Source: a virus
Lineage: Duplodnaviria; Caudoviricetes
IMG/VR virus record: IMGVR_UViG_3300028048_000085
Location: 54,851-118,850 of that record
Length of the DNA stretch: 64,000 nucleotides
Reading direction: 5' to 3' (one strand)
This document shows, one piece after another, positions 4,175-49,309 of this stretch (position 1 is the stretch's first letter; every line of letters starts with the position of its first letter). Both the position numbers and the translations under genes were made by a program. The notes under the pieces are model-generated. The model saw only the letters and a program-made list of their open reading frames with translations, ran no database searches and was not told the origin of the DNA.

Positions 4175-4353
4175 TGGGAGATGAGAGATTGAAAAATATT
4201 GAGTTATTGAGTGAATTAAGATCTCAATATAGTTGTTTTGATGAAAAAGAAGAACCATATTATCGAGCCTTGTCAGTAGGTATTGCAGCTATCAGAGAAC
4301 AGATATCTGCTAATAATGAAGAGCAGGCTCGTGAAGAAAGCGAGGAATAAAGA

Positions 4354-4653
4354 ATGGTAGGAATCGAAGGGATGAAAATGCCGGGCGACTGTATCAGTTG
4401 CCCTTTCTTAAAAGCCGATGGTACAAGATTCTTTTGTAGTCGAATAATGAAGTATATAGATAAAAATGATCTCGAAAGTAAACATAATGAATGCCCTCTA
4501 GTAGATATCGTTACTTGTAAGTATTGCAAACATTGGAAGGACAGTGATGGAGTATATCGCAGAGGTATTGGTGCTGAAAGCAAATGTCCGTTAAATACCA
4601 AAGAAGTATTTAAAGGAAACTTTTATTGTCCAATTGGTGAAAGGAGAAAATAA
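4354..4653 (+). CDS. Small Cys-rich phage protein
   Basis: CISCPF, ECPL, CKYCKHW, FYCP motifs. Confidence 0.65.
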   Translation: MVGIEGMKMPGDCISCPFLKADGTRFFCSRIMKYIDKNDLESKHNECPLVDIVTCKYCKHWKDSDGVYRRGIGAESKCPLNTKEVFKGNFYCPIGERRK

Positions 4654-4906
4654 AAATGGATTATATTGAATACTTATGGAGAGTATATGATAAATTAAAA
4701 ATTGATTACTATTGTGGTCGGATAGACAAATATCCACCATTTCCTATATGGAGTAGATAGGGAAGCAAAAGGAGGTATACTGATGGAGGATGAAAAAGAA
4801 GAACCATATTATCAAGCTGTGTCAACAGCTATTGCAGCTATCAGAGAACAAATATGTGCTAATAATGGAGCACAGATTGTTTATTTGATGGTAGTGGAGG
4901 AAGACA

Positions 4907-5176
4907 ATGATGTTTGATAAAGATTTATTTCTTTCTATATGTGAGAAATACGATGTAGAACTTAGTCAAACTGCGGATAGTCCTATGCTTAAGGAGGACG
5001 GGGGAAGAATGACAGATAAAGAGAAACAAATCAATTTGCAAGTGATTGATATAAGAGCAAACTTGCATAATATTATGAAAGATATTGAGCCAAAAGAATT
5101 ATATGATAAATTGGTTGATATTGATAATCAGATATATAAGATAAGAGAGATTCTGATGCAGAGTGAGGTAGAATAA
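4907..5176 (+). CDS. Hypothetical protein
   Basis: ORF with GGAGG RBS; stop/start overlap with next gene. Confidence 0.55.
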   Translation: MMFDKDLFLSICEKYDVELSQTADSPMLKEDGGRMTDKEKQINLQVIDIRANLHNIMKDIEPKELYDKLVDIDNQIYKIREILMQSEVE

Positions 5177-5805
5177 TGACAAGAGAAGGATTAATAAATT
5201 ATGGAGAAATGTTCCTTGAAGTGAACAATGATTCGAAAAATAGTAACACATATGAATTTATTGAAGAGGCACTCAAATTATTCAAACAGGATTCTGTTCT
5301 CGTTAAGATAAAATCCGAGATAAAAGAATGGTATTGGCAAGCTGATAAACAAGCATTAGCAGGAGACCCTTGCGTGGTTGATGGTATGATTGACTTGTTT
5401 ATCCGAACTATCAACAAGTATGAGAAAGGAACCCCGATTAAACACTGTGAAAAAGCAGTGAGTGTGCAAGATTGCATCAATGCTATTGAAAATACAGATT
5501 GTGAATTATCTCCACAAGCATGGAAAGAAATTACAACCAGTATAATGTCTTTACCACCTGCAATACCCACACGCAAGAAAGGTAAGTGGATAAAAATAGG
5601 TGATAGAGGTTTTGGTGTATCTGACACTGTGATTTGTAAATGCTCTGAATGTGAATATAAAACAGAATTTAGGGGAAAATTTGATGGACATGATCTTGTT
5701 ATAGATCCGAAGCACGCTCATAAATATTGCCCTAGTTGTGGATTAGAGATGGAGAATGCAGAACGAAATATATTTGGCAAATATAAGGAAATGGAGGTTG
5801 ATTAA
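5176..5805 (+). CDS. Phage protein with C-terminal Zn-ribbon
   Basis: KKGKWI...CKCSEC...YCPSCG motif. Confidence 0.65.
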   Translation: MTREGLINYGEMFLEVNNDSKNSNTYEFIEEALKLFKQDSVLVKIKSEIKEWYWQADKQALAGDPCVVDGMIDLFIRTINKYEKGTPIKHCEKAVSVQDCINAIENTDCELSPQAWKEITTSIMSLPPAIPTRKKGKWIKIGDRGFGVSDTVICKCSECEYKTEFRGKFDGHDLVIDPKHAHKYCPSCGLEMENAERNIFGKYKEMEVD

Positions 5806-5806
5806 T

Positions 5807-6526
5807 ATGGCTTTTAAATTTACAGAGGAGTCCCACATGCTTAATCAAGAAGAGATTGATAAGCTGTCTATCGATGATCAGCTTAGACATATTATGATAA
5901 ACACTGGAAGCATATTATTAAGCACACGTATTGCTTATATATCTTGCTGGGAAGCTATGCGCAAATCAATCGACAAGTACATATCTCTACGTCCCAAAAT
6001 AAATCAGCTATGCACAGATTTTGCAAATCTTTCAACAGAAGAGGTTATATCAAATCTGGCGGATAAAGAAGATTATGATGGTTGTAAAGAAACTGTAAAG
6101 AGTCTCCAGAATATTATTGATAGATGTAAAGAGTTCATGGATGATTTGGAACAGAATATGGGAAAGTATGTAGAGTTTACTGATCCAGAATATTATGTAT
6201 TGATTGATAAAGTAACTATCTTTCTCAATACACAGAAAACATTTAGGGCCTATAGCAACAATATCGATGATATCAAAGATATAATTTTATCAAAATGGTT
6301 TGACAGGATAGATTCAATTATTGATTCTATATTAGATGAATCTGCAGATAGTAATTATAAAGAATTATTATTCACATATGAGCCCGATATCAAAGCAGAC
6401 ATTGAGAAATTACGGGATGATATTGAGGCAAAGATAGCAGAAGATGAAGAGCTTAATCCTGAGTTAAAGATGTCATCTTTGGTGCTCAAAACTATTAACA
6501 ATTCAGCTAGGAGGTTAATTCTATGA
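5807..6526 (+). CDS. Hypothetical helical protein
   Basis: Start moved to ATG 5807 after GGAGG. Confidence 0.7.
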   Translation: MAFKFTEESHMLNQEEIDKLSIDDQLRHIMINTGSILLSTRIAYISCWEAMRKSIDKYISLRPKINQLCTDFANLSTEEVISNLADKEDYDGCKETVKSLQNIIDRCKEFMDDLEQNMGKYVEFTDPEYYVLIDKVTIFLNTQKTFRAYSNNIDDIKDIILSKWFDRIDSIIDSILDESADSNYKELLFTYEPDIKADIEKLRDDIEAKIAEDEELNPELKMSSLVLKTINNSARRLIL

Positions 6527-7458
6527 CAGGAACACAGGTTATTACTACGGTTAAAAGAGACGATATTCCAGAATATTTTTCTAATATTTCACAGTACTTA
6601 TTCTCAGTTTATGATCCAGATATGCGTATTAAGATGCGTAAGTATAATATTATCAACGATAATCTGGTATCTGCTACAACATATTATCTCAAGTTATCTG
6701 ATGATTTGAACTCTATCATTGTTAGTGCAAAAGCACCTAATACAGAAGAGAATAATGCTGGTTATAGACACAACGATTTAGACGTTACATATAACTCTAA
6801 GATTGTTGCTATAGATGCTACAGATGTGAATAATAATATGATAGTTCCACCTACATATTATACATGTAACCATAAATTATCAATGAAGATTTTTATACCA
6901 ATCACTTTTGGAAAATCTAGTGGCGCACAAAATCTGAAGCTTTCACTGAATAGTGTATTTTCTACATCAGTGTCTGATACTATTGAACGAGTGAAGTCAG
7001 AGTTCTCCGGTAATATTAAATATGGACAATGGGATTTACATCCTGATAAGACATATAGTCTGTATATACTGCTTCCTAATTCTAAGACAGTACCAGTTGT
7101 ACGATTAACAGATGATGAAGTACGATTAGAAGATCTGATCAATCCGGAATATGATGATGATCATGTATTATACAGCAATTATCTGGAAGAATATGAGGTA
7201 TCTCAGGAGAAGACAAGAGTTGTTCCCGCAAGAGCAGTTACCAATATAACATTCGATGCAAAGAATCGTATGCAGAATGAGTTGAATGTCAAGTATGATA
7301 ATATGCTCAAAATGTTAGAGAAGCAGCAGAAGCAGATGGTAACTACGGATAAGGAATCTATTGATGTCAAAGTTGATCTCTCAAAGAAAAATGGAAATGG
7401 TCAGACTATTGCATTAGAACCAGGAGCAGTTATCATGCCAGGTGATAAGTTTTGTTAA
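6523..7458 (+). CDS. Hypothetical protein
   Basis: 311-aa ORF, ATGA overlap with the upstream gene. Confidence 0.7.
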   Translation: MTGTQVITTVKRDDIPEYFSNISQYLFSVYDPDMRIKMRKYNIINDNLVSATTYYLKLSDDLNSIIVSAKAPNTEENNAGYRHNDLDVTYNSKIVAIDATDVNNNMIVPPTYYTCNHKLSMKIFIPITFGKSSGAQNLKLSLNSVFSTSVSDTIERVKSEFSGNIKYGQWDLHPDKTYSLYILLPNSKTVPVVRLTDDEVRLEDLINPEYDDDHVLYSNYLEEYEVSQEKTRVVPARAVTNITFDAKNRMQNELNVKYDNMLKMLEKQQKQMVTTDKESIDVKVDLSKKNGNGQTIALEPGAVIMPGDKFC

Positions 7459-7468
7459 GGAGTAAATA

Positions 7469-8140
7469 ATGTACGAATATGAGCAGTTCTATAACCCATA
7501 TACATTAAACATATTTTCTGATGCTTCGATGTTAAATGAGAAGCATCAGAGTATTGGTGGATGTTATGGAGCAATTGCTGTTACTGAAGATCGTGTAATA
7601 GAATCTGTATATAAATTTGCAAAAGGTGCTACAAATAACAATTGTGAGATAAAAGGTTTAAGATCCGCTTTACGTTTAGCAAATCGTTATAAGAATAATT
7701 TCAGAGTCATTAATATATTTAGTGACTCTGATATATCTATATCGGGTTTAACAACGTATATCCACAGTTGGAAATATGTGGCAGAAGAGCAGATGTTATA
7801 TACTAAGACAACAAATAAACCCGCTGCTAATCAGGAAGTATTTATTGAAGCTTTTCATCTATTGGACCATATGATCAAATCTGGATATAATATTAATATC
7901 TATCATATAAAGGGTCATACGGACAACTCACCTAATAGTATACAGAAGGCAACAATAACATTTTGCAAGCTGAACAATATACCTAGAGGTGTTAAAGTTG
8001 ATATTAATCTGATTGCTTATCTTTGTACTTACAATAACTTGGTAGACTATCGATCTAGGGCATTACTAGCAGCTGTTGATTTCAATACACAGAATTATCA
8101 AGATCCAATATCATTTTTTGCAACTAGTAGCATTGATTAA
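7469..8140 (+). CDS. rnhA: Ribonuclease H (RNase HI-like)
   Basis: IFSDAS, TNNNCEIKG, IFSDS, HIKGH, NNLVD: complete D-E-D-(H)-D set. Confidence 0.88.
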   Translation: MYEYEQFYNPYTLNIFSDASMLNEKHQSIGGCYGAIAVTEDRVIESVYKFAKGATNNNCEIKGLRSALRLANRYKNNFRVINIFSDSDISISGLTTYIHSWKYVAEEQMLYTKTTNKPAANQEVFIEAFHLLDHMIKSGYNINIYHIKGHTDNSPNSIQKATITFCKLNNIPRGVKVDINLIAYLCTYNNLVDYRSRALLAAVDFNTQNYQDPISFFATSSID

Positions 8141-8150
8141 TTTTCAAATT

Positions 8151-8170
8151 AATCATATACTATATACTTG
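8151..8170 (+). promoter_or_regulatory. Early-type phage promoter motif (representative copy)
   Basis: AATCATATACTATATACTTG; related copies at 11041, 26181, 32061, 32453, 33381, 38864, 41085, 44149, 46729, 48349, 54276, all intergenic and upstream of + strand genes. Confidence 0.8.
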
Positions 8171-33295: not shown

Positions 33296-33469
33296 CAAAC
33301 GAGTCTGCTTAGAAATGAGCAGACTCTCTAAGTTACGACAAATATTGATATACCTAATATTTGTACAAGTGTAGTATTATACTTATATACTATATACTTG
33401 ATAAGATAGAGTTGATAGCCTATTTATCAAAAAATGACAATTTAGATTTATTTAAAGGAGGAAACTAAA

Positions 33470-35015: not shown

Positions 35016-35165
35016 TGAATCGACGATAAGAATAATCTTATATGTTTGAATGAGTTACCGAATCGAAGCAAAATTAAAGCACGGATACGAATTAAAGGTA
35101 GTAACTAAATTATGAATAATTAATGAGTCATAATGACGGAGTAAATATTAATACTAATGAACGAA
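35016..35165 (+). ncRNA. TIGR-like dual-repeat mini-array 1 (~4 units)
   Basis: YGARTY at 35016, 35051, 35088, 35124 (period 35-37) alternating with AATCTTA/AAAATTA/TAAATTA/AATATTA. Confidence 0.55.
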
Positions 35166-35282
35166 AGCTTGTATGGTGATACTTAATACACAATTCAGTT
35201 TTGTGTATTTTAGTATCACCATATTAGGGCTTTATAATATATCAAAAATTAATTTTTATTTTTTATTTTAACAATATGATAA

Positions 35283-35901
35283 TGAAGAATATGTTATTAG
35301 ATCGAGTTCATAGTATATGTATATGATAAGTTGTGACAAAATAGGTCCTATATAAATGGACACCGCATAGTATATGCACTGACTCTTTATCATATCAGAT
35401 ATTATGTGAAGCATCATCATCGATCACTAAATATAATCGAGCAAATTATTTTTTTATAGTAACCTCATTATTTATCCCAGGTCAGGTTAAAACAGCATTT
35501 GTTTAGTTACATTTGTGTCTATATCTTGTGTCAAATTTTATAGACTTTGGTGATCGGCTTCCCGATTCTATAACATTCTTTCTTCACAGCAACATTTTAA
35601 CAGAATTTATACGCGTATATTTGATGAGGGGATTTGTATACATAAAGTTTAAGTTACGTTTGCTTTAAACGATATAATATGATTGAGACTATGATTATAC
35701 AAATCCCTTCTATCAAGAAATTTTAGAGACTTGAGTGTATATGATGATTTTTTAGAATTGCACATTTACCTTACCAATATTGCAATCATTTTTGAATATA
35801 CAGTCAGATCACTGGCTACTTCTTACTTTGCGTAATCTGTATGCTTGAGTCTCTTTAATATATAAAAATTCAACTTTCTTGCTTATCCTCCATAAGAAGA
35901 A
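35283..35901 (+). ncRNA. Large structured non-coding RNA (unassigned)
   Basis: No ORF; late-type promoter at 35270 and terminator at 35917-35968; many nested helices with + strand G-U pairs. Confidence 0.7.
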
Positions 35902-35916
35902 TATGTTTTTTAGTTT

Positions 35917-35968
35917 CAGTAGATGCGTATAGAGTTTGCCAGCTCTATACGTTATTTACTGTCTTTTT
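35917..35968 (+). terminator. Intrinsic terminator closing the ncRNA
   Basis: CAGTAGAT-GCGTATAGAG-loop-CTCTATACG-TT-ATTTACTG followed by TCTTTTT. Confidence 0.75.
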
Positions 35969-36015
35969 GAAACATCTATATAAATTGTACATTTGAGAAA
36001 GGAGCAAATATTCTT

Positions 36016-39756: not shown

Positions 39757-39890
39757 TGAATTAAATATAAAGCGAGTTATGATATCTGACTAATATTAAT
39801 GAATAAAAACGAATTCACAATCAGATACAAAATTACAACGGTCAAATGAATCAATGCAATAACTAAAATTAAACGAGGGAAATGAATCTT
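39757..39890 (+). ncRNA. TIGR-like dual-repeat mini-array 2 (3 full units)
   Basis: YGARTY at 39773, 39810, 39847, 39883 (37/37/36); AAWATTA at 39792, 39829, 39865. Confidence 0.65.
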
Positions 39891-39963
39891 AAGAAAGTGG
39901 AGTAGTCAATTACGACTACTCCATGATCTTTCTAAAATAAAACTCTCATAAGTATTTATTTTT

Positions 39964-40237: not shown

Positions 40238-41041
40238 TTAATGTTTTATGATACTAGGATCAATATAAAATGGTTTTATAATCTTGTGCTGATCTGATTC
40301 ATTTTCAACTTCACCAGGTAGAGACAACATATTATTTTTTATCTGTTCAATCTGTGATTGCATCTTATCTGCAACATTACCAAGATCTGGTAACTGATAT
40401 GATGGATCTTTAATCTCAAACCTAACTTTATGTGGTTCGATAATCGTAGTATTCATCAGAGTCATATCATTCTGATTGCTATATTTTTCAATACGATTTA
40501 ATGTATCCATCATCTCTGGTGTAATGAATGGTCGATAATAATCTACGAAGAGTTTATATCTTCCCAAGACATTATTAACGTTAATAAATAATCGATGATT
40601 ATGGAACAACTTATGGTTTGTCTCAGATAATGGTACCAATGATACCATAAATTTGTAATGTAGACTCATTACTTCTTTTGATACCATTTGAACACTCATT
40701 GATTCGTGATAATATTCACGCTTCTTTATTACTATTTCAACAATATCTGCTAATGAAAATGGATAGTGGTGTAATTCTATAACAATACCATTCTGCTCTT
40801 CATTTGATACTCCTGTTTGAAAAGCATCCTTATTCATATTCATATTCTCACGCAGATATTTTACAAAGTTACGATACTCACTACTTTGTCGTACATTTCG
40901 TTCAATATCTTTTATATATGTCCTATATTCCTTATCATCCAGAAGATTATAAATCTCACCTTCATATGGTGGTACATTTCCAATCTTAATCGTATCTGCT
41001 AGATTATGATCTAGCACCTGTATTGCGTCGGGATCTACCAT
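40238..41041 (-). CDS. HNH-like protein, paralogue of 18445..19218
   Basis: RQSSEYRNFVKYL...IELHH...LVPLSETNHKLFH. Confidence 0.6.
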   Translation of the reverse strand: MVDPDAIQVLDHNLADTIKIGNVPPYEGEIYNLLDDKEYRTYIKDIERNVRQSSEYRNFVKYLRENMNMNKDAFQTGVSNEEQNGIVIELHHYPFSLADIVEIVIKKREYYHESMSVQMVSKEVMSLHYKFMVSLVPLSETNHKLFHNHRLFINVNNVLGRYKLFVDYYRPFITPEMMDTLNRIEKYSNQNDMTLMNTTIIEPHKVRFEIKDPSYQLPDLGNVADKMQSQIEQIKNNMLSLPGEVENESDQHKIIKPFYIDPSIIKH

Positions 41042-42982: not shown

Positions 42983-43573
42983 ATGAGTAAAAAGAACAAT
43001 AATGAGATACTTCCTAATATTGATAGTGAGTTAATCTATCAATATTTTTCCAGATATGAGAAGAATCCTGTTGTTAGTGAAGAGATTTGGATACCAATTA
43101 CTAGTGCTGTATCAGATTCTATAGAACCAATGCGATATGATATATCTACAACTGGTAGAGTGTGGGATAATAAACTATCACAATATGTTATCATTCACAA
43201 TAATAAGGGTGACGATTATGTAGATCTAGAAAGATATTATAAATCCAATCCAAATAGAAATACAACGTTGATTCGTTTTAAGCTTACTAGATTAATGGGA
43301 TTTTGTTTTAATCGAGATCAATATGGCAATATTTGTCAGATACCATATGATGATCAATCGATGAATGTAATATATCTTAATAATGAAGATCGGACGAATG
43401 ATATTTATAATCTGCATGTCGGAAAGAATGTAGATAATTCAAAGCTGATTACAGAACGATATCAGCATCGTTTAAAGATTGCCAGAGCTAAGAATAAAGC
43501 TCATGTTAAGAAACAGAGGGATATGTATAAGGAGGCAGGATATGAACCAGTCGGTAAAGATTTTAAGCTATAA
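42983..43573 (+). CDS. NUMOD4 / degenerate HNH protein
   Basis: EEIWIPI...YDISTTGRVW (NUMOD4); VIYLNNEDRTNDIYNL lacks the catalytic His. Confidence 0.6.
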   Translation: MSKKNNNEILPNIDSELIYQYFSRYEKNPVVSEEIWIPITSAVSDSIEPMRYDISTTGRVWDNKLSQYVIIHNNKGDDYVDLERYYKSNPNRNTTLIRFKLTRLMGFCFNRDQYGNICQIPYDDQSMNVIYLNNEDRTNDIYNLHVGKNVDNSKLITERYQHRLKIARAKNKAHVKKQRDMYKEAGYEPVGKDFKL

Positions 43574-44108
43574 TGAAGAGATCATGGTTACCTTGTTTAA
43601 TCCTGGATATTATGATGAAAAATTATGGTATAATCAGCTGCGACATCTAGGATACGACGAGACTGGTACAATCTTTAATATAGAAACATATAAACCGGTG
43701 ATACTATCTACAAAATATGCTAAATACGGAGATATGATGTCTGCTAAAGTATACTTACCACCATTTGTTCAAGGGGATAATCCTGTTAGAGTTGATCAGC
43801 TTATTATTGCAAATGAATGCAATGTAAACTTTCGATATTCATTCAGTGGTGGTAGCAAATCTAAATATCAAGTATGGCATAAAGATGGCAATTGGAGAAA
43901 CAATGCATTATATAATCTAGAATTAGTAGATAGAGCAACATTTAATATATTGCTTAATGAAGCACATGAAAAAATGAGACGTAATACAACAGATGAATTC
44001 CCACCAAGAGGAGTTCATTCTCGTATAGATCTCAGCACTGGTAAGATTATCCGTACAGATATTAGTTGTTATGACGAGATACAACGTAATAAAACACAGA
44101 GACCCTGA
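43479..44108 (+). CDS. HNH endonuclease-like protein
   Basis: VWHKDGNWRNNALYNLELV; likely start ~43542 (MNQSVK). Confidence 0.65.
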   Translation: MPELRIKLMLRNRGICIRRQDMNQSVKILSYNEEIMVTLFNPGYYDEKLWYNQLRHLGYDETGTIFNIETYKPVILSTKYAKYGDMMSAKVYLPPFVQGDNPVRVDQLIIANECNVNFRYSFSGGSKSKYQVWHKDGNWRNNALYNLELVDRATFNILLNEAHEKMRRNTTDEFPPRGVHSRIDLSTGKIIRTDISCYDEIQRNKTQRP

Positions 44109-44245
44109 TCAGGGTCTCTGTTTATTTTTTGTATTTCTTAAATTTTATGATTATATACTATATACTTGATAAGATAGAGTTGATAGCCTAATACTTATCA
44201 AAATGACAAAATTAAATTTATTTAAAGAATTGGAGGAAATTAAAA

Positions 44246-45373
44246 ATGGGCGATTCATGGGGTAGTTTTTGGAAGACTAATCCGGAGAACGGATTAATCG
44301 GTTGGACAGATAACAATCTGTCAAAAGATCAGATTGACTTCAGAATTAAGGAAGTCGGCTGGGGATCAAGAGCAATGTTATCACAGTTCTATGCTCCAGA
44401 TAACAAGATGCGTTTAAACAACCTTCTCAATGGTCTTGTAAAATACGCGACGGAAGATGAGCTGATCAATTTAGCTTGTCTGCTTCATTGTAACGCAGGA
44501 TACTTAACTGGTATTCTTCCAATCGATGAAGACAAGTATGCTACGGAACCAGATTTCCGGGCAAACTTTAACGCTACTGGAATGATCCGGTATGAGGGTG
44601 ATCTTAATAAGCTCGGTAAGTTATACGTACGCAAGCTTGCTGAAAATGTTAAGATTCCTGTTGAAGTAATGACCATGGTCATTACAGGACAGATGCCAGT
44701 AACGGCATATGTCGCTAACAAGATTGAAGCTGGTATGAATAAGCTCAATCTTACAGTAACATATCATCCTTACAATGCTAGTAAGGACGTTTGCAAGCCT
44801 ATCTTCAAAGATAGTCTTCATATGCAGAAAGCAATTCAGTCTATCAATATGAGGAAGAAGGCCGAGAAGATTAAGTTGAAAGACTTAGTCGACAAGAAGT
44901 CCGATGAGGATGAAGCAAAGGAAGTTGCAGATATGCTTGTAGCTTCACTTGAAGAACCTGAACCTGTTCCAGAAACAACAGTGGATTCACTTACAACATC
45001 TGATGATAAAGAAAACATCAGCAGAGTTGTGCATTATGAGAATTGTATTCATAATGTACAGGAAGCTTTCGAGTATCCGGATGAAGAAGATGATCCAGAC
45101 TTCAATAAAGCATTTGAAGTTGAGATCGTCGGAGAAGGTCCGAAGATTCTTGGAAATATCAATGATGAAGATTTTGATATTGACAAGATTCCGATGCACG
45201 ATGATATTATTGTAAATGGTCGATATGGCGATGGTAATGTAAACAAGAAGAACCAGAGCAAGCAGGTTCTGGATTTAGTTAAGGAAATCAACGATATTGA
45301 ATTCCTTGACAAGCTTGCAAAGTATTGCTCAGCTAGAGCAGAAATGCTCAGATGTGAGCAGGATATTTTCTAA
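44246..45373 (+). CDS. Putative DNA-binding (XRE-HTH-like) early protein
   Basis: RLNNLLNG...ELINLACLLHCNAGYLTG and RKLAENVKIPVEVMTMVITG; acidic C-terminal half. Confidence 0.45.
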   Translation: MGDSWGSFWKTNPENGLIGWTDNNLSKDQIDFRIKEVGWGSRAMLSQFYAPDNKMRLNNLLNGLVKYATEDELINLACLLHCNAGYLTGILPIDEDKYATEPDFRANFNATGMIRYEGDLNKLGKLYVRKLAENVKIPVEVMTMVITGQMPVTAYVANKIEAGMNKLNLTVTYHPYNASKDVCKPIFKDSLHMQKAIQSINMRKKAEKIKLKDLVDKKSDEDEAKEVADMLVASLEEPEPVPETTVDSLTTSDDKENISRVVHYENCIHNVQEAFEYPDEEDDPDFNKAFEVEIVGEGPKILGNINDEDFDIDKIPMHDDIIVNGRYGDGNVNKKNQSKQVLDLVKEINDIEFLDKLAKYCSARAEMLRCEQDIF

Positions 45374-45472
45374 GATACAAAGAGGGGTCCAGAGTATTGT
45401 ATATACTCTGGACTTCTTTATGTATATACAATGTCAATTTATATTAATAGAAAGAAATTGGAGGAAATTATT

Positions 45473-46666
45473 ATGACAAAGAAGAACGATGAGAAGGTAT
45501 TAGTAGAAGCAGGAATCGCTGGTGCACAGAGTGATGAAATCATCGATGGATTTAATGTCGATGAGGATGTCGAACTCATGAAGGCATTGTCTTTATCCAA
45601 AGAGATCAAGACAAGCATTCTTGAAGTTGGTAATGTAGGACGTCAGGAGATTAAAACACTGGTTGATCTCTTCTATCAGATGCAGGACATTCGTAAAGCT
45701 CTGCGTGAGCAGATCCGCTCCATTGAACATGATGCTGATGAGGGATCATCTATCAATGTCATGATTCTGGAATGGAATCTGAAGAACATTGGTATCATTG
45801 AGAATGGTATCAAGAAGTGCCTGGAGCTGGTATGTCAGTCAGATCCAGTAGGACGTTGGCTCCTTTCTATCGTAGGAATGGGACCTATCCTGAGTGCTGG
45901 TCTTCTTGCATATCTTGATGTAACTGGTAAGAACTATGCTAGCAACTTCATTAGCTATGCTGGTTTGAACGATAATAACCGCCCATGGCTTGGTGCGGAA
46001 AAGTCTAAGAACCTGGTTAACGAGGTTGTCGGAACAGCAAAGACTATCACTGATGATATGGTGGTAGAGATTGCTGCTAAGTCTAAATGGTCATATGATT
46101 ATCTTCGTGATAATGCGTATAACCAGGAGAAGGAGAAGTGGAGTAAGACAGATCTTATCAAAGCTTGCTCTAAGATTCCGTACAACAAGAAGCTTAAAAC
46201 ACTTCTGTACAAGTGTGGATCTTCTTGGCAGTGGTGCTGCAATAAGCCAAACTCATTATATGGTCAGCTCTTTAATCAGAGAAGAGTATACGAGACCATT
46301 AAGAATGAGAATGGTGATTATGCAGCAGAGGCAGCTAAGCAGCTTGCTTGCAAGAACTTCAGTAAGACTACAGAAGCTTACAAGCAGTATAACCAGGGTA
46401 AGCTGCCGAAAGCACATATTACAATGCGTGCTATGAGATGGACAGAGAAGATCTTCCTGTCACATCTCTTCGAAGAAATGTATCGTGTAAAGTATGATAA
46501 GGTACCTGCAAGATACTATGCTCTTGAACATGTTCAGGGACATCATGATGAGATCTTGCCAGAGGTTCCATATACAAAGGTAACTGGTGAGAACGATGTA
46601 AAGGTTGCATCATCTGACGGAGAATACGAAGCATATGTTGGAGCATTCTTCGAAGGAAAGAAGTAA
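45473..46666 (+). CDS. IS110/Nop-domain RNA-binding protein lacking a nuclease domain (TasA-like)
   Basis: Coiled coil (EIKTLVDLFYQMQDIRKALREQIR), then WLLSIVGMGPILSAGLLAYLD...ASNFISYAGL, PYNKKLKTLLY, AHITMRAMRWTEKIFLSHL; no RuvC/DEDD N-terminus and no SG catalytic serine after YAGL; start at ATG 45473 after GGAGG. Confidence 0.75.
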   Translation: MTKKNDEKVLVEAGIAGAQSDEIIDGFNVDEDVELMKALSLSKEIKTSILEVGNVGRQEIKTLVDLFYQMQDIRKALREQIRSIEHDADEGSSINVMILEWNLKNIGIIENGIKKCLELVCQSDPVGRWLLSIVGMGPILSAGLLAYLDVTGKNYASNFISYAGLNDNNRPWLGAEKSKNLVNEVVGTAKTITDDMVVEIAAKSKWSYDYLRDNAYNQEKEKWSKTDLIKACSKIPYNKKLKTLLYKCGSSWQWCCNKPNSLYGQLFNQRRVYETIKNENGDYAAEAAKQLACKNFSKTTEAYKQYNQGKLPKAHITMRAMRWTEKIFLSHLFEEMYRVKYDKVPARYYALEHVQGHHDEILPEVPYTKVTGENDVKVASSDGEYEAYVGAFFEGKK

Positions 46667-46796
46667 TAAAAACAGGGGGTCTGCTCAGAAATGAGCAGAC
46701 TCTATTATTTGTATAAGTGTATAAAAATAATTATATACTATATACTTGTAAAGAAGAACAATATTGTCATACAATAATAAAAAGGAGGATAATAGT

Positions 46797-48262: not shown

Positions 48263-48410
48263 TTATTTGGAGGTTTAATCTCTAATTATATAAACCGGTT
48301 ACTAATATTTTAGTAACTGGTTTATTTTTTTTTGTCAAAATATGAAATAATCATATACTATACTTATGGTTAAAGAGAATAATAAAATGTATTATGAAAG
48401 GTTTAATGAA

Positions 48411-49130
48411 ATGAAGAAGTTATTCAAGATCGTAACACTGTCAATGATTATTGTAACATTACTTGCTATACCAGCTAATGCTGTAACAACATATTTGTCG
48501 AAATATGAGGTACAAGAACAAATCTCAAAGGTTTCCAAAATCATTAAGAAACTCCAAAAACAATATGTATCTCAGCGGAAAGTAGAAGCAAATGGATATA
48601 CATATATTGCATCTGCAAATATTATATCTTTGAATCCATATATTATAGAGGATATAGATACATCCGAAATGTACTACGTTGAATCAGAAGCAAAAGGATC
48701 ATCTACAATTGTGGATGATAAAGCTTATGATCTATATACAAGGATATCTAAGAACAAATATTCTTATAAAGGAAACATTTGTAAGGGAATTACACTTGTT
48801 AAAGTGGACCACCTAACATCAAATAATATTCTTAAAAAGATTAAGAAGTATCGTAGTAAAATTACAAATTATAAGATGATGCTGAAAGCTAAAGTTGTAA
48901 CTACAAAACTCAATCTAACAGTTGGTGATGAGCAGTATTGGTCTAAAGGATTCAAATTCAAGAAAGCACCTAATACCTCATATTCTGTTGAGATTAGAAA
49001 TAAAGATATTGTGTCTATCGATTATAAGACAGGTCATATTAAAGCTCTTAAATCTGGAAAGACTACAATGTCATGTACTTGCAAACAATCTGGTATTACA
49101 ACATCTATTGTAATAACTGTATCTAAGTAA
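48411..49130 (+). CDS. Secreted protein with C-terminal Ig-like (Big_2) domain
   Basis: Signal peptide MKKLFK...PANA; LTVGD...IVSID..TGHIKALKSGKTTMSCT. Confidence 0.65.
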   Translation: MKKLFKIVTLSMIIVTLLAIPANAVTTYLSKYEVQEQISKVSKIIKKLQKQYVSQRKVEANGYTYIASANIISLNPYIIEDIDTSEMYYVESEAKGSSTIVDDKAYDLYTRISKNKYSYKGNICKGITLVKVDHLTSNNILKKIKKYRSKITNYKMMLKAKVVTTKLNLTVGDEQYWSKGFKFKKAPNTSYSVEIRNKDIVSIDYKTGHIKALKSGKTTMSCTCKQSGITTSIVITVSK

Positions 49131-49141
49131 AGGAGAATCAT

Positions 49142-49309
49142 ATGGCTATCACATTAGAAGATATCAAAAAGAAGTATGAAGATACTATTAAAAGAGAATC
49201 AAAGATTTGGGAAAAAGCCGGACTAGATCCAGCTGGAAACCAAGCTTGTCAGGAAGCTAAACTTATCATTGGTCTCATTGAAGAGCACTATAACAATAAT
49301 AAAGAATAG
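49142..49309 (+). CDS. Small protein (55 aa, not in ORF track)
   Basis: AAGGAG RBS; MAITLEDIKKKYE...; last gene before mini-array 3. Confidence 0.65.
   Translation: MAITLEDIKKKYEDTIKRESKIWEKAGLDPAGNQACQEAKLIIGLIEEHYNNNKE

Follow-up and report, generated by a model that had tools for sequence, protein, structure and literature searches.

The window analysed here is a 64,000-nucleotide (nt) stretch of DNA, read 5′ to 3′ on one strand, that spans positions 54,851 to 118,850 of IMG/VR virus record IMGVR_UViG_3300028048_000085 (Duplodnaviria; Caudoviricetes). Positions refer to this window unless the genome, meaning the whole record, is named. The record is a linear virus contig of 118,850 bp with a CheckV completeness estimate of 48%, and its source is an uncultured jumbo-size phage carrying multisubunit RNA polymerase genes; the window is AT-rich phage DNA with a G+C content of ~33%. 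Our subject is the gene at 45473–46666, tasA, together with the arrays of TIGR guide units that lie dispersed in the same genome. We think it probable that this jumbo-type phage has a TIGR-Tas system of the dual-repeat kind, in which TasA is the effector and has no nuclease. The features that this reading draws on are as follows.

45473–46666, plus strand: tasA, encoding a nuclease-less TIGR-associated Nop-domain protein of 397 amino acids (aa), assigned from family matches, an AlphaFold2 (AF2) model and fold comparison.
45968–46177, plus strand: the part of tasA coding for the wedge insertion, residues 166–235 (70 residues), flanked by SYAGL and PYNKKLK.
35049–35160, plus strand: TIGR mini-array M1, three units, with position weight matrix (PWM) scores of 31.6, 30.6 and 18.2; a long hairpin follows.
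39771–39889, plus strand: TIGR mini-array M2, three units, from a pattern match at 39845, direct reading and PWM scores of 25.3, 33.6 and 31.1.
39897–39924: a hairpin after M2, folding at -21.6 kcal/mol.
49321–49431, plus strand: TIGR mini-array M3, three units of 9+9+9+9 design, from the repeat finder TRF, direct reading and PWM.
49430–49464, plus strand: a Rho-independent terminator closing M3, a 14-bp stem followed by a T-run (-23.2 kcal/mol, z -5.9).
Genome 48,340–51,770 (4340–7770 of locus L009; outside the window), minus strand: a large TIGR array of 3.4 kb and ~70–78 units, from pattern and PWM searches.

The open reading frame (ORF) at 45473–46666 is a real gene. Its start lies 8 nt 3′ of a GGAGG ribosome-binding site in the same context (AATTGGAGGAAATTA) as that of the 375-aa gene upstream, an alternative in-frame ATG at 45431 lacks a ribosome-binding site, and a homologue 98% identical to it has 398 aa. 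The product gives only a sub-threshold Pfam match, to Transposase_20 over its helix-hairpin-helix (residues 143–180, E 0.0046), and matches PHROG 4285 ('transposase') at 1e-28. Searched against the PDB with a 20-sequence profile, it finds TaTasR (9MTY, 1e-6) and SpTasH (4e-5) ahead of ISCro4 (4e-3) and IS621 (8e-3). In the AF2 model (pLDDT 76.8, pTM 0.70) residues 1–39 are disordered and long helices at 57–86 and 92–122 precede a helical C-terminal domain. TasH and TasR chains were the only Foldseek matches at probability 1.0. By VIA-align, SpTasH scored highest (Z 16.8, 228 residues aligned, root-mean-square deviation 5.0), followed by TaTasR (Z 15.1, 188 residues aligned), IS621 and ISCro4 (Z 10.5–10.8) and Nop5 (7.3), with unrelated helical proteins at 9 or below. 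A Nop fold and a coiled-coil hairpin are thus present according to the model, the Foldseek result and VIA-align scores well above the helical background. In searches allowing E values up to 1, no nuclease family matched TasA; DEDD/RuvC and HNH domains are missing from all of the 10 longest relatives tested. TasA is by published definition a nuclease-free Tas protein (PMC12045711), and because the product lacks a nuclease domain we name it accordingly: as modelled, it is TasA, a Tas-type Nop/coiled-coil protein without a nuclease. A preliminary description of this DNA had proposed a Tas/IS110-like protein with an acidic N-terminus of ~55 residues in place of the RuvC domain, and both parts hold; the first 55 residues contain 12 D/E against 6 K/R.

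The similarity to IS110 recombinases (IS621, 8WT6; ISCro4, 9T56) extends to their RNA-binding, Nop-like C-terminal domain, and together with the Transposase_20 match and the PHROG label it could be taken to mean that tasA is a decayed IS110-family transposase fragment kept by chance and unrelated to the arrays. We give this explanation almost no credence. The frame is intact, relatives are 46–63% identical over their full length with 40 invariant residues, and there are more than 1,286 clusters with no DEDD domain among those tested. The serine expected after YAGL is not conserved; no serine occurs between G164 and P236 in the columns conserved at 90% or above among 20 relatives. Arrays directly adjoin homologues of the gene, and Tas proteins score far above the IS110 enzymes. 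Unlike an IS110 element, the phage gene lacks the DEDD/RuvC domain (no PF01548 match), insertion sequence ends and a bridge RNA, is present in one copy in the 118.8-kb record, and goes with arrays of short dual guides. The preliminary description was therefore right that this is not a mobile insertion sequence. It had also pictured the gene as domesticated, with no bridge-RNA-sized region beside it; in fact tasA belongs to a complete TIGR-TasA system, for which the same genome supplies ~80 guide units.

The closest structural counterparts, SpTasH of Salicola phage CGphi29 (PDB 9W03, 9W04, 9VZX and 21KL) and TaTasR, match model residues 54–368. They have in common with the phage protein the GxGP motif of the helix-hairpin-helix, the NKxLK helix and a C-terminal loop of the LEHxxGH type, and they dimerise through the coiled-coil, as is predicted for phage TasA. 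Modelled in two copies, TasA forms a symmetric homodimer via residues 44–116 with an ipSAE of 0.64, against 0.00 for the best control; at least 85% of contacts are the same from run to run, and partner pLDDT is at least 81. Of 30 proteins solved as pairs, 20 attained this ipSAE mark, as did 1 of 23 solved as single chains; since solved Tas dimers exist, the pass may partly reflect likeness to them. Where the two known proteins differ is in their N-terminal HNH or RuvC nucleases, which cut DNA and are replaced in phage TasA by the disordered acidic N-terminus, in their wedge loops of 13–15 residues, and in sequence, identity to phage TasA being 16–21%.

The guide arrays are best seen in M3, which contains the top-scoring TRF repeat of the window (period 36, 49353–49430). 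It begins 12 nt past the stop codon of an ORF at 49142–49309, opens with an edge repeat truncated at its 5′ end (GAGTTA, 49321), continues through three units to a 3′-truncated edge (AATGAG, 49426–49431) and runs into the terminator. Each unit consists of an edge repeat of the AATGAATTA type, 9 variable nt, a loop repeat of the CCAAAATTA type and another 9 variable nt, and two exact pattern matches fall in M3, where the PWM gives unit scores of 35.7 and 24.9. TIGR arrays have been described as carrying truncated edge repeats at their ends with a terminator after them (Faure et al., PMC12045711), and the layout of M3 agrees with that description. A search with AAYGARTYA-N10-CAAWATTA gave 3 matches in the window where 0.04 were expected and revealed M2, while a PWM scan gave 77 units against 0–2 in shuffles and found M1, whose units are diverged copies of units in the large array (their loop-spacer-edge strings match genome 50317/48764, 48654 and 50243). 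These three arrays, at 49321–49431, 39771–39889 and 35049–35160, run counter to the earlier statement that no guide-RNA-sized non-coding region was visible. Rfam and tRNA scans of the window returned nothing. About 800 bp without an ORF lie at 35230–36015, 3′ of M1 and its hairpin, with no Rfam match.

By far the most units are in the large array, which gives 22 strict pattern matches against 0.01 expected; 68 of its units parse cleanly and 69 pass the PWM. It is built as two blocks, with genes for a DNA polymerase and an RNA polymerase beta-prime-like protein on either side, and the motif TATATACTATATA that precedes the tasA operon also stands directly 5′ of it, at genome 51759 on the minus strand. 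Its edge repeats cycle through AATGAGTTA, ATCGAATCA and AATGAATTA, giving super-periods of 73 and 109 nt, and some units are duplicated within it. In 26 clean units the information profile is high across the repeats and falls almost to zero across the 9-nt spacers. Two ORFs lie with the array in the same orientation, neither with a Pfam or PHROG match:

L009 5404–5949, minus strand: a 181-aa ORF, between the two array blocks.
L009 3857–4234, minus strand: a 125-aa ORF, between the array and a terminator.

Taken together, the four arrays give the consensus edge AAYGARTYA, ~9 variable nt, loop NCAAWATTA and ~9 variable nt, with a 36-nt period. Both repeats end in UYA/UUA at the position held by CCA in TaTasR; the edge repeat contains UG and the loop repeat starts with CA or AA. 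From tasA, the large array is 48.5 kb upstream, and M1, M2 and M3 are 10.3, 5.6 and 2.7 kb away.

Loci from other viral and metagenome contigs help to connect the gene with the arrays. The TasA family comprises 1,286 representative clusters at 50% identity (E<1e-30) and is known only from metagenomes; neither the DNA nor the protein of the locus has a match in GenBank phages, and the GTDB genome contigs contain no relative. A detector of 34–39-nt periodic k-mer chains, applied to 30 related loci, found arrays in 16, compared with 0 of 30 shuffled loci. Most of them begin within ~200 nt of the tasA stop codon, several (in L003, L021 and L037) exceed 2 kb, and those inspected have the 9+9+9+9 design of the phage. 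Because most related arrays directly follow tasA, the dispersed arrays of this phage are an unusual state, the norm of the clade being an array immediately 3′ of the gene. Edge repeats form a graded series across loci, from GUGAACCA by way of AUGAAUCA to AAUGARUUA (UGAACCA to UGAAUCA to UGARUUA), which links the AU-rich repeats found here to the published UG...CCA boxes. An exact search of viral contigs for the repeat pattern of the phage gave no match, the repeats differing between loci, as has been published for TIGR repeats. The available part of Table S1 of Faure et al. holds no sequence with the motifs of this family, which has no bearing on whether the clade has been catalogued. An alternative genetic code was considered for L003 and rejected, as the gene reads through under table 11. 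In three further contigs (L006–L008, 5803–6423) the tasA homologue is 206 aa long and represents the C-terminal part only; a repeat-rich ORF of 289 aa follows it, with no array within 6 kb, and this tasA may be truncated or split.

A further possible tie between protein and arrays is the C-terminus. In SpTasH, Y289 and H296 of a flexible C-terminal region catalyse cleavage of the pre-tigRNA (PMC13421893), and a Y/H loop reportedly distinguishes dual-repeat systems from stem-loop ones, which lack it (2026 preprints). In phage TasA, PARYYALEHVQGHHDEILPEVPY follows the last core helix (HLFEEMYRV) and aligns with the TaTasR C-terminus PWILEHGGHVDYIKP, with RYYALEHVQGHH set against PWILEHGGH of TaTasR. 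Among 20 relatives H358 never varies, and conservation of Y348/Y349 is 90% or higher. As judged from these alignments, the putative Y/H-type loop fits the dual-repeat arrays. It also sets the phage protein apart from PlTasA, MbTasA and BlTasA (preprints 10.64898/2026.09.09.750476 and 10.64898/2026.08.11.744272), repressors that use stem-loop tigRNAs and lack the C-terminal loop, whereas the phage has dual-repeat arrays and a loop of the Y/H type. The conserved loop, and a Nop fold common to Nop5, could alternatively mean that the complex guides an action on RNA in the manner of box C/D small nucleolar ribonucleoproteins, or that TasA is mainly an array-processing RNase. However, all Tas proteins characterised so far target DNA, no methyltransferase partner is seen in the neighbourhood, and the match to Nop5 does not rise above the helical background, so that we find either version very unlikely.

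A family-wide feature is the length of the wedge, a name given in a 2026 preprint to the position after the helix-hairpin-helix. The stretch that separates SYAGL (first residue 161) from PYNKKLK (first residue 236) is 70 residues long; at this place TaTasR and SpTasH have 13–15, typical catalogued Tas proteins ~17 and FpTasA ~38. The preliminary description had put the excess at 65–70 residues; a large insertion at this place is indeed present, but the excess is nearer 55 (70 against 13–15). The segment is modelled as helices at 174–186, 194–204, 208–215 and 225–232 plus a short hairpin, with pLDDT of 81–95 over the block; W206 is invariant and the motifs TQW and DDMV are conserved. In the relatives in which both flanking motifs could be located, the wedge has at least 65 residues in 153 of 153, with a median of 69 and lengths of 150–197 in 19 proteins, and is therefore a family-wide subdomain. 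Both the model and its conservation argue that the 70 residues form a folded subdomain fixed across the family and not a disordered linker. The predicted dimer interface does not include it, and a second, smaller expansion of ~30 residues occurs near residues 280–312. No guide units were found by PWM scan inside tasA or the wedge coding sequence, and a search of the ESM Atlas with the wedge segment alone gave only leads below 0.9. Possible roles are extra contacts with RNA or DNA, or the recruitment of another factor. Two distant relatives of 614–616 aa (P0215 and P0223) are HTH-TasA fusions: at the N-terminus stands an HTH_3 domain that scores above the Pfam cut-off, and they also have a charged linker and a wedge of ~160 residues or more.

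Around the gene itself, the following elements can be made out.

44152–44164, plus strand: the promoter-like 13-mer TATATACTATATA, 5′ of the 375-aa gene and tasA.
44246–45373, plus strand: a 375-aa ORF of unknown function with no family match.
45375–45425, plus strand: a hairpin between the 375-aa gene and tasA (RNA fold -29.9 kcal/mol, z -7.6).
46676–46703, plus strand: a terminator hairpin 3′ of tasA, from a terminator scan (fold -20.7 kcal/mol, z -7.0).

Of the early promoter claimed for this operon, a promoter-like motif is borne out but not the early class: TATATACTATATA recurs with at most 1 mismatch before other plus-strand operons, at 8154, 26184, 32064, 33384, 38867, 46732 and 54279. 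The ~45-nt leader that follows it (cttgataagatagagttgatagccta...ttatcaaaa) is nearly identical at 33384–33450 and 44152–44215 and can form a hairpin; it may be a shared 5′ untranslated region (UTR) element. The context of tasA in the phage DNA is a fixed one, flanked by a terminator and a promoter motif. The hairpin between the two genes, also part of the earlier account, is confirmed: none of 200 shuffles folded as well, the tail 3′ of it is only moderately U-rich, and it may serve as a partial terminator or as a processing or stability element. No promoter motif was found between the 375-aa gene and tasA, so read-through from 44152 into tasA is plausible. The proposed co-transcription of the two genes accordingly stands as plausible, with the qualification that a very stable hairpin separates them.

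The upstream ORF exists as the preliminary description had it, but its reading as a putative double helix-turn-helix (HTH) protein is not confirmed. The protein has no match in Pfam or PHROG, its AF2 model has a pLDDT of 40 and cannot support a fold search, and the sole leads are weak ESM Atlas matches to HTH_26/HTH_3 at 0.88, below the mark of 0.9; its two helical blocks could be HTH-like. Five homologues were found, all close (87–94% identity), and the gene is missing beside the tasA homologues of L001–L008; it is therefore not a conserved partner of tasA. An hhalign comparison with the two HTH-TasA fusions gave a probability of 0.1–0.15, with no detectable similarity. These results speak neither for nor against a ParB-like protein of the kind known from published tasParB operons.

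An RNA polymerase beta-like gene of 1,602 aa lies at 49473–54281, and tasA is near RNA polymerase beta genes both here and in L001. Between a conserved phrog_12252 gene (40238–41041, minus strand) and tasA there are several small inserted genes, including an HNH endonuclease ORF at 43479–44108 (HNH_3, PHROG 959). The related loci L001 and L005 lack this ORF, which is probably an insertion of the homing-endonuclease type.

How would such a system work? Going by published Tas biochemistry, we propose that the arrays are transcribed, the large one from behind the motif also found before tasA and the small ones at the 3′ ends of operons, and that the transcripts would be cut into tigRNAs of ~36 nt, a step that TasA itself would probably carry out with its conserved C-terminal Y...GxH loop. 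A TasA dimer would hold one tigRNA, whose two 9-nt spacers would pair with opposite strands to specify an 18-bp DNA site. The complex would then bind and bend the DNA and most likely block transcription or replication of the target. As TasA lacks a nuclease, binding would occur without cleavage, and RNA-guided DNA binding without cleavage is in our analysis the most likely function; TasA ribonucleoproteins are known to bind DNA and repress transcription (preprint 10.64898/2026.09.09.750476). The paired spacers were searched against the phage's own 118 kb in the pairings A+rcB, rcB+A, A+B and B+A with up to 3 mismatches. In this record, which amounts to about half of the genome, there was no excess over controls, so that self-regulation is unsupported and DNA of the host or of a rival element is the likelier target.

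Several observations pull against the view of TasA as a dual-repeat TIGR effector. The matches of paired spacers in the phage DNA equal those of mismatched-pair controls and no target was found there; tasA and the arrays are 2.7–48.5 kb apart, and their pairing rests on co-occurrence and on the related loci; the loop repeat has no initial UG as in the TaTasR repeats, and the box C/D assignment is uncertain. On the side of the protein, the spacing from Y to H is 9 in TasA against 7 in SpTasH, no solved structure contains an equivalent of the wedge subdomain, and a compact Nop core has been described for dual-repeat Tas proteins (2026 preprint).

The wedge also bears on whether repression is the main task. 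TasA and its tigRNA might instead recruit or position a factor on DNA through the wedge or the acidic tail, for instance the RNA polymerase of the phage, a protein for partition or anchoring, or the 375-aa protein, or the complex might be an RNA-guided aid to DNA bending. An added function of this kind is suggested by the presence of the wedge in every relative measured and its great length in some, and agrees with its position away from the dimer interface, with the two HTH_3 fusions, with the proximity of tasA to RNA polymerase beta genes, and with the TasA-ParB operons and the DNA bending discussed by Faure et al. (PMC12045711). No conserved partner stands beside tasA, however, the 375-aa protein has close homologues only, and published assays of TasA (preprint 10.64898/2026.09.09.750476) amount to simple target-dependent repression. 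We therefore hold recruitment as the main job to be rather unlikely. A bolder reading, and one we offer as speculation with low odds, is that the conserved wedge, very long in some relatives, makes this clade, some members of which also have fused HTH_3 domains, more than a passive roadblock: TasA would serve as a platform guided by RNA that brings in or keeps out another machine, phage or host RNA polymerase for example, at ~80 programmed sites, with guides drawn from operon 3′ UTRs and a giant array, as part of the gene-expression programme of a jumbo phage.

Among described systems, one of the nearest to that of the phage is the dual-repeat TIGR-TasA system of FpTasA (Flavonifractor plautii; PMC12045711). 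In both, the Nop domain stands alone with its coiled-coil, a nuclease is missing and the host is a phage; the array unit repeats every 36 nt and runs from edge repeat to 9-nt spacer A to loop repeat to 9-nt spacer B, the arrays have truncated edges at their ends and a terminator behind them, and spacers tend to end in A. They differ in the stretch after YAGL, which is ~38 residues in FpTasA and 70 in the phage protein, in the phage repeats being AU-rich (UGARUYA, CAAWAUUA) rather than UG...CCA, and in the arrays (three of 3 units and one of ~70–78) being dispersed at 2.7–48.5 kb instead of lying beside tasA. Phage TasA thus extends a known TIGR-Tas system and leaves its known mechanism unchanged.

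What nuclease-free TasA does in phages is, as the authors of the TIGR-Tas papers state, an open question. What this genome adds is one tasA with ~80 guides in four arrays, one of them 48.5 kb away and three at operon ends, from which it follows that searching only a few kb around tas genes can miss arrays. In a 2026 preprint 6,685 arrays were listed for 20,096 tas loci, and distant arrays may account for part of the tas loci that appear to have none. The folded wedge, present throughout the family, provides a concrete handle for structure-function work.

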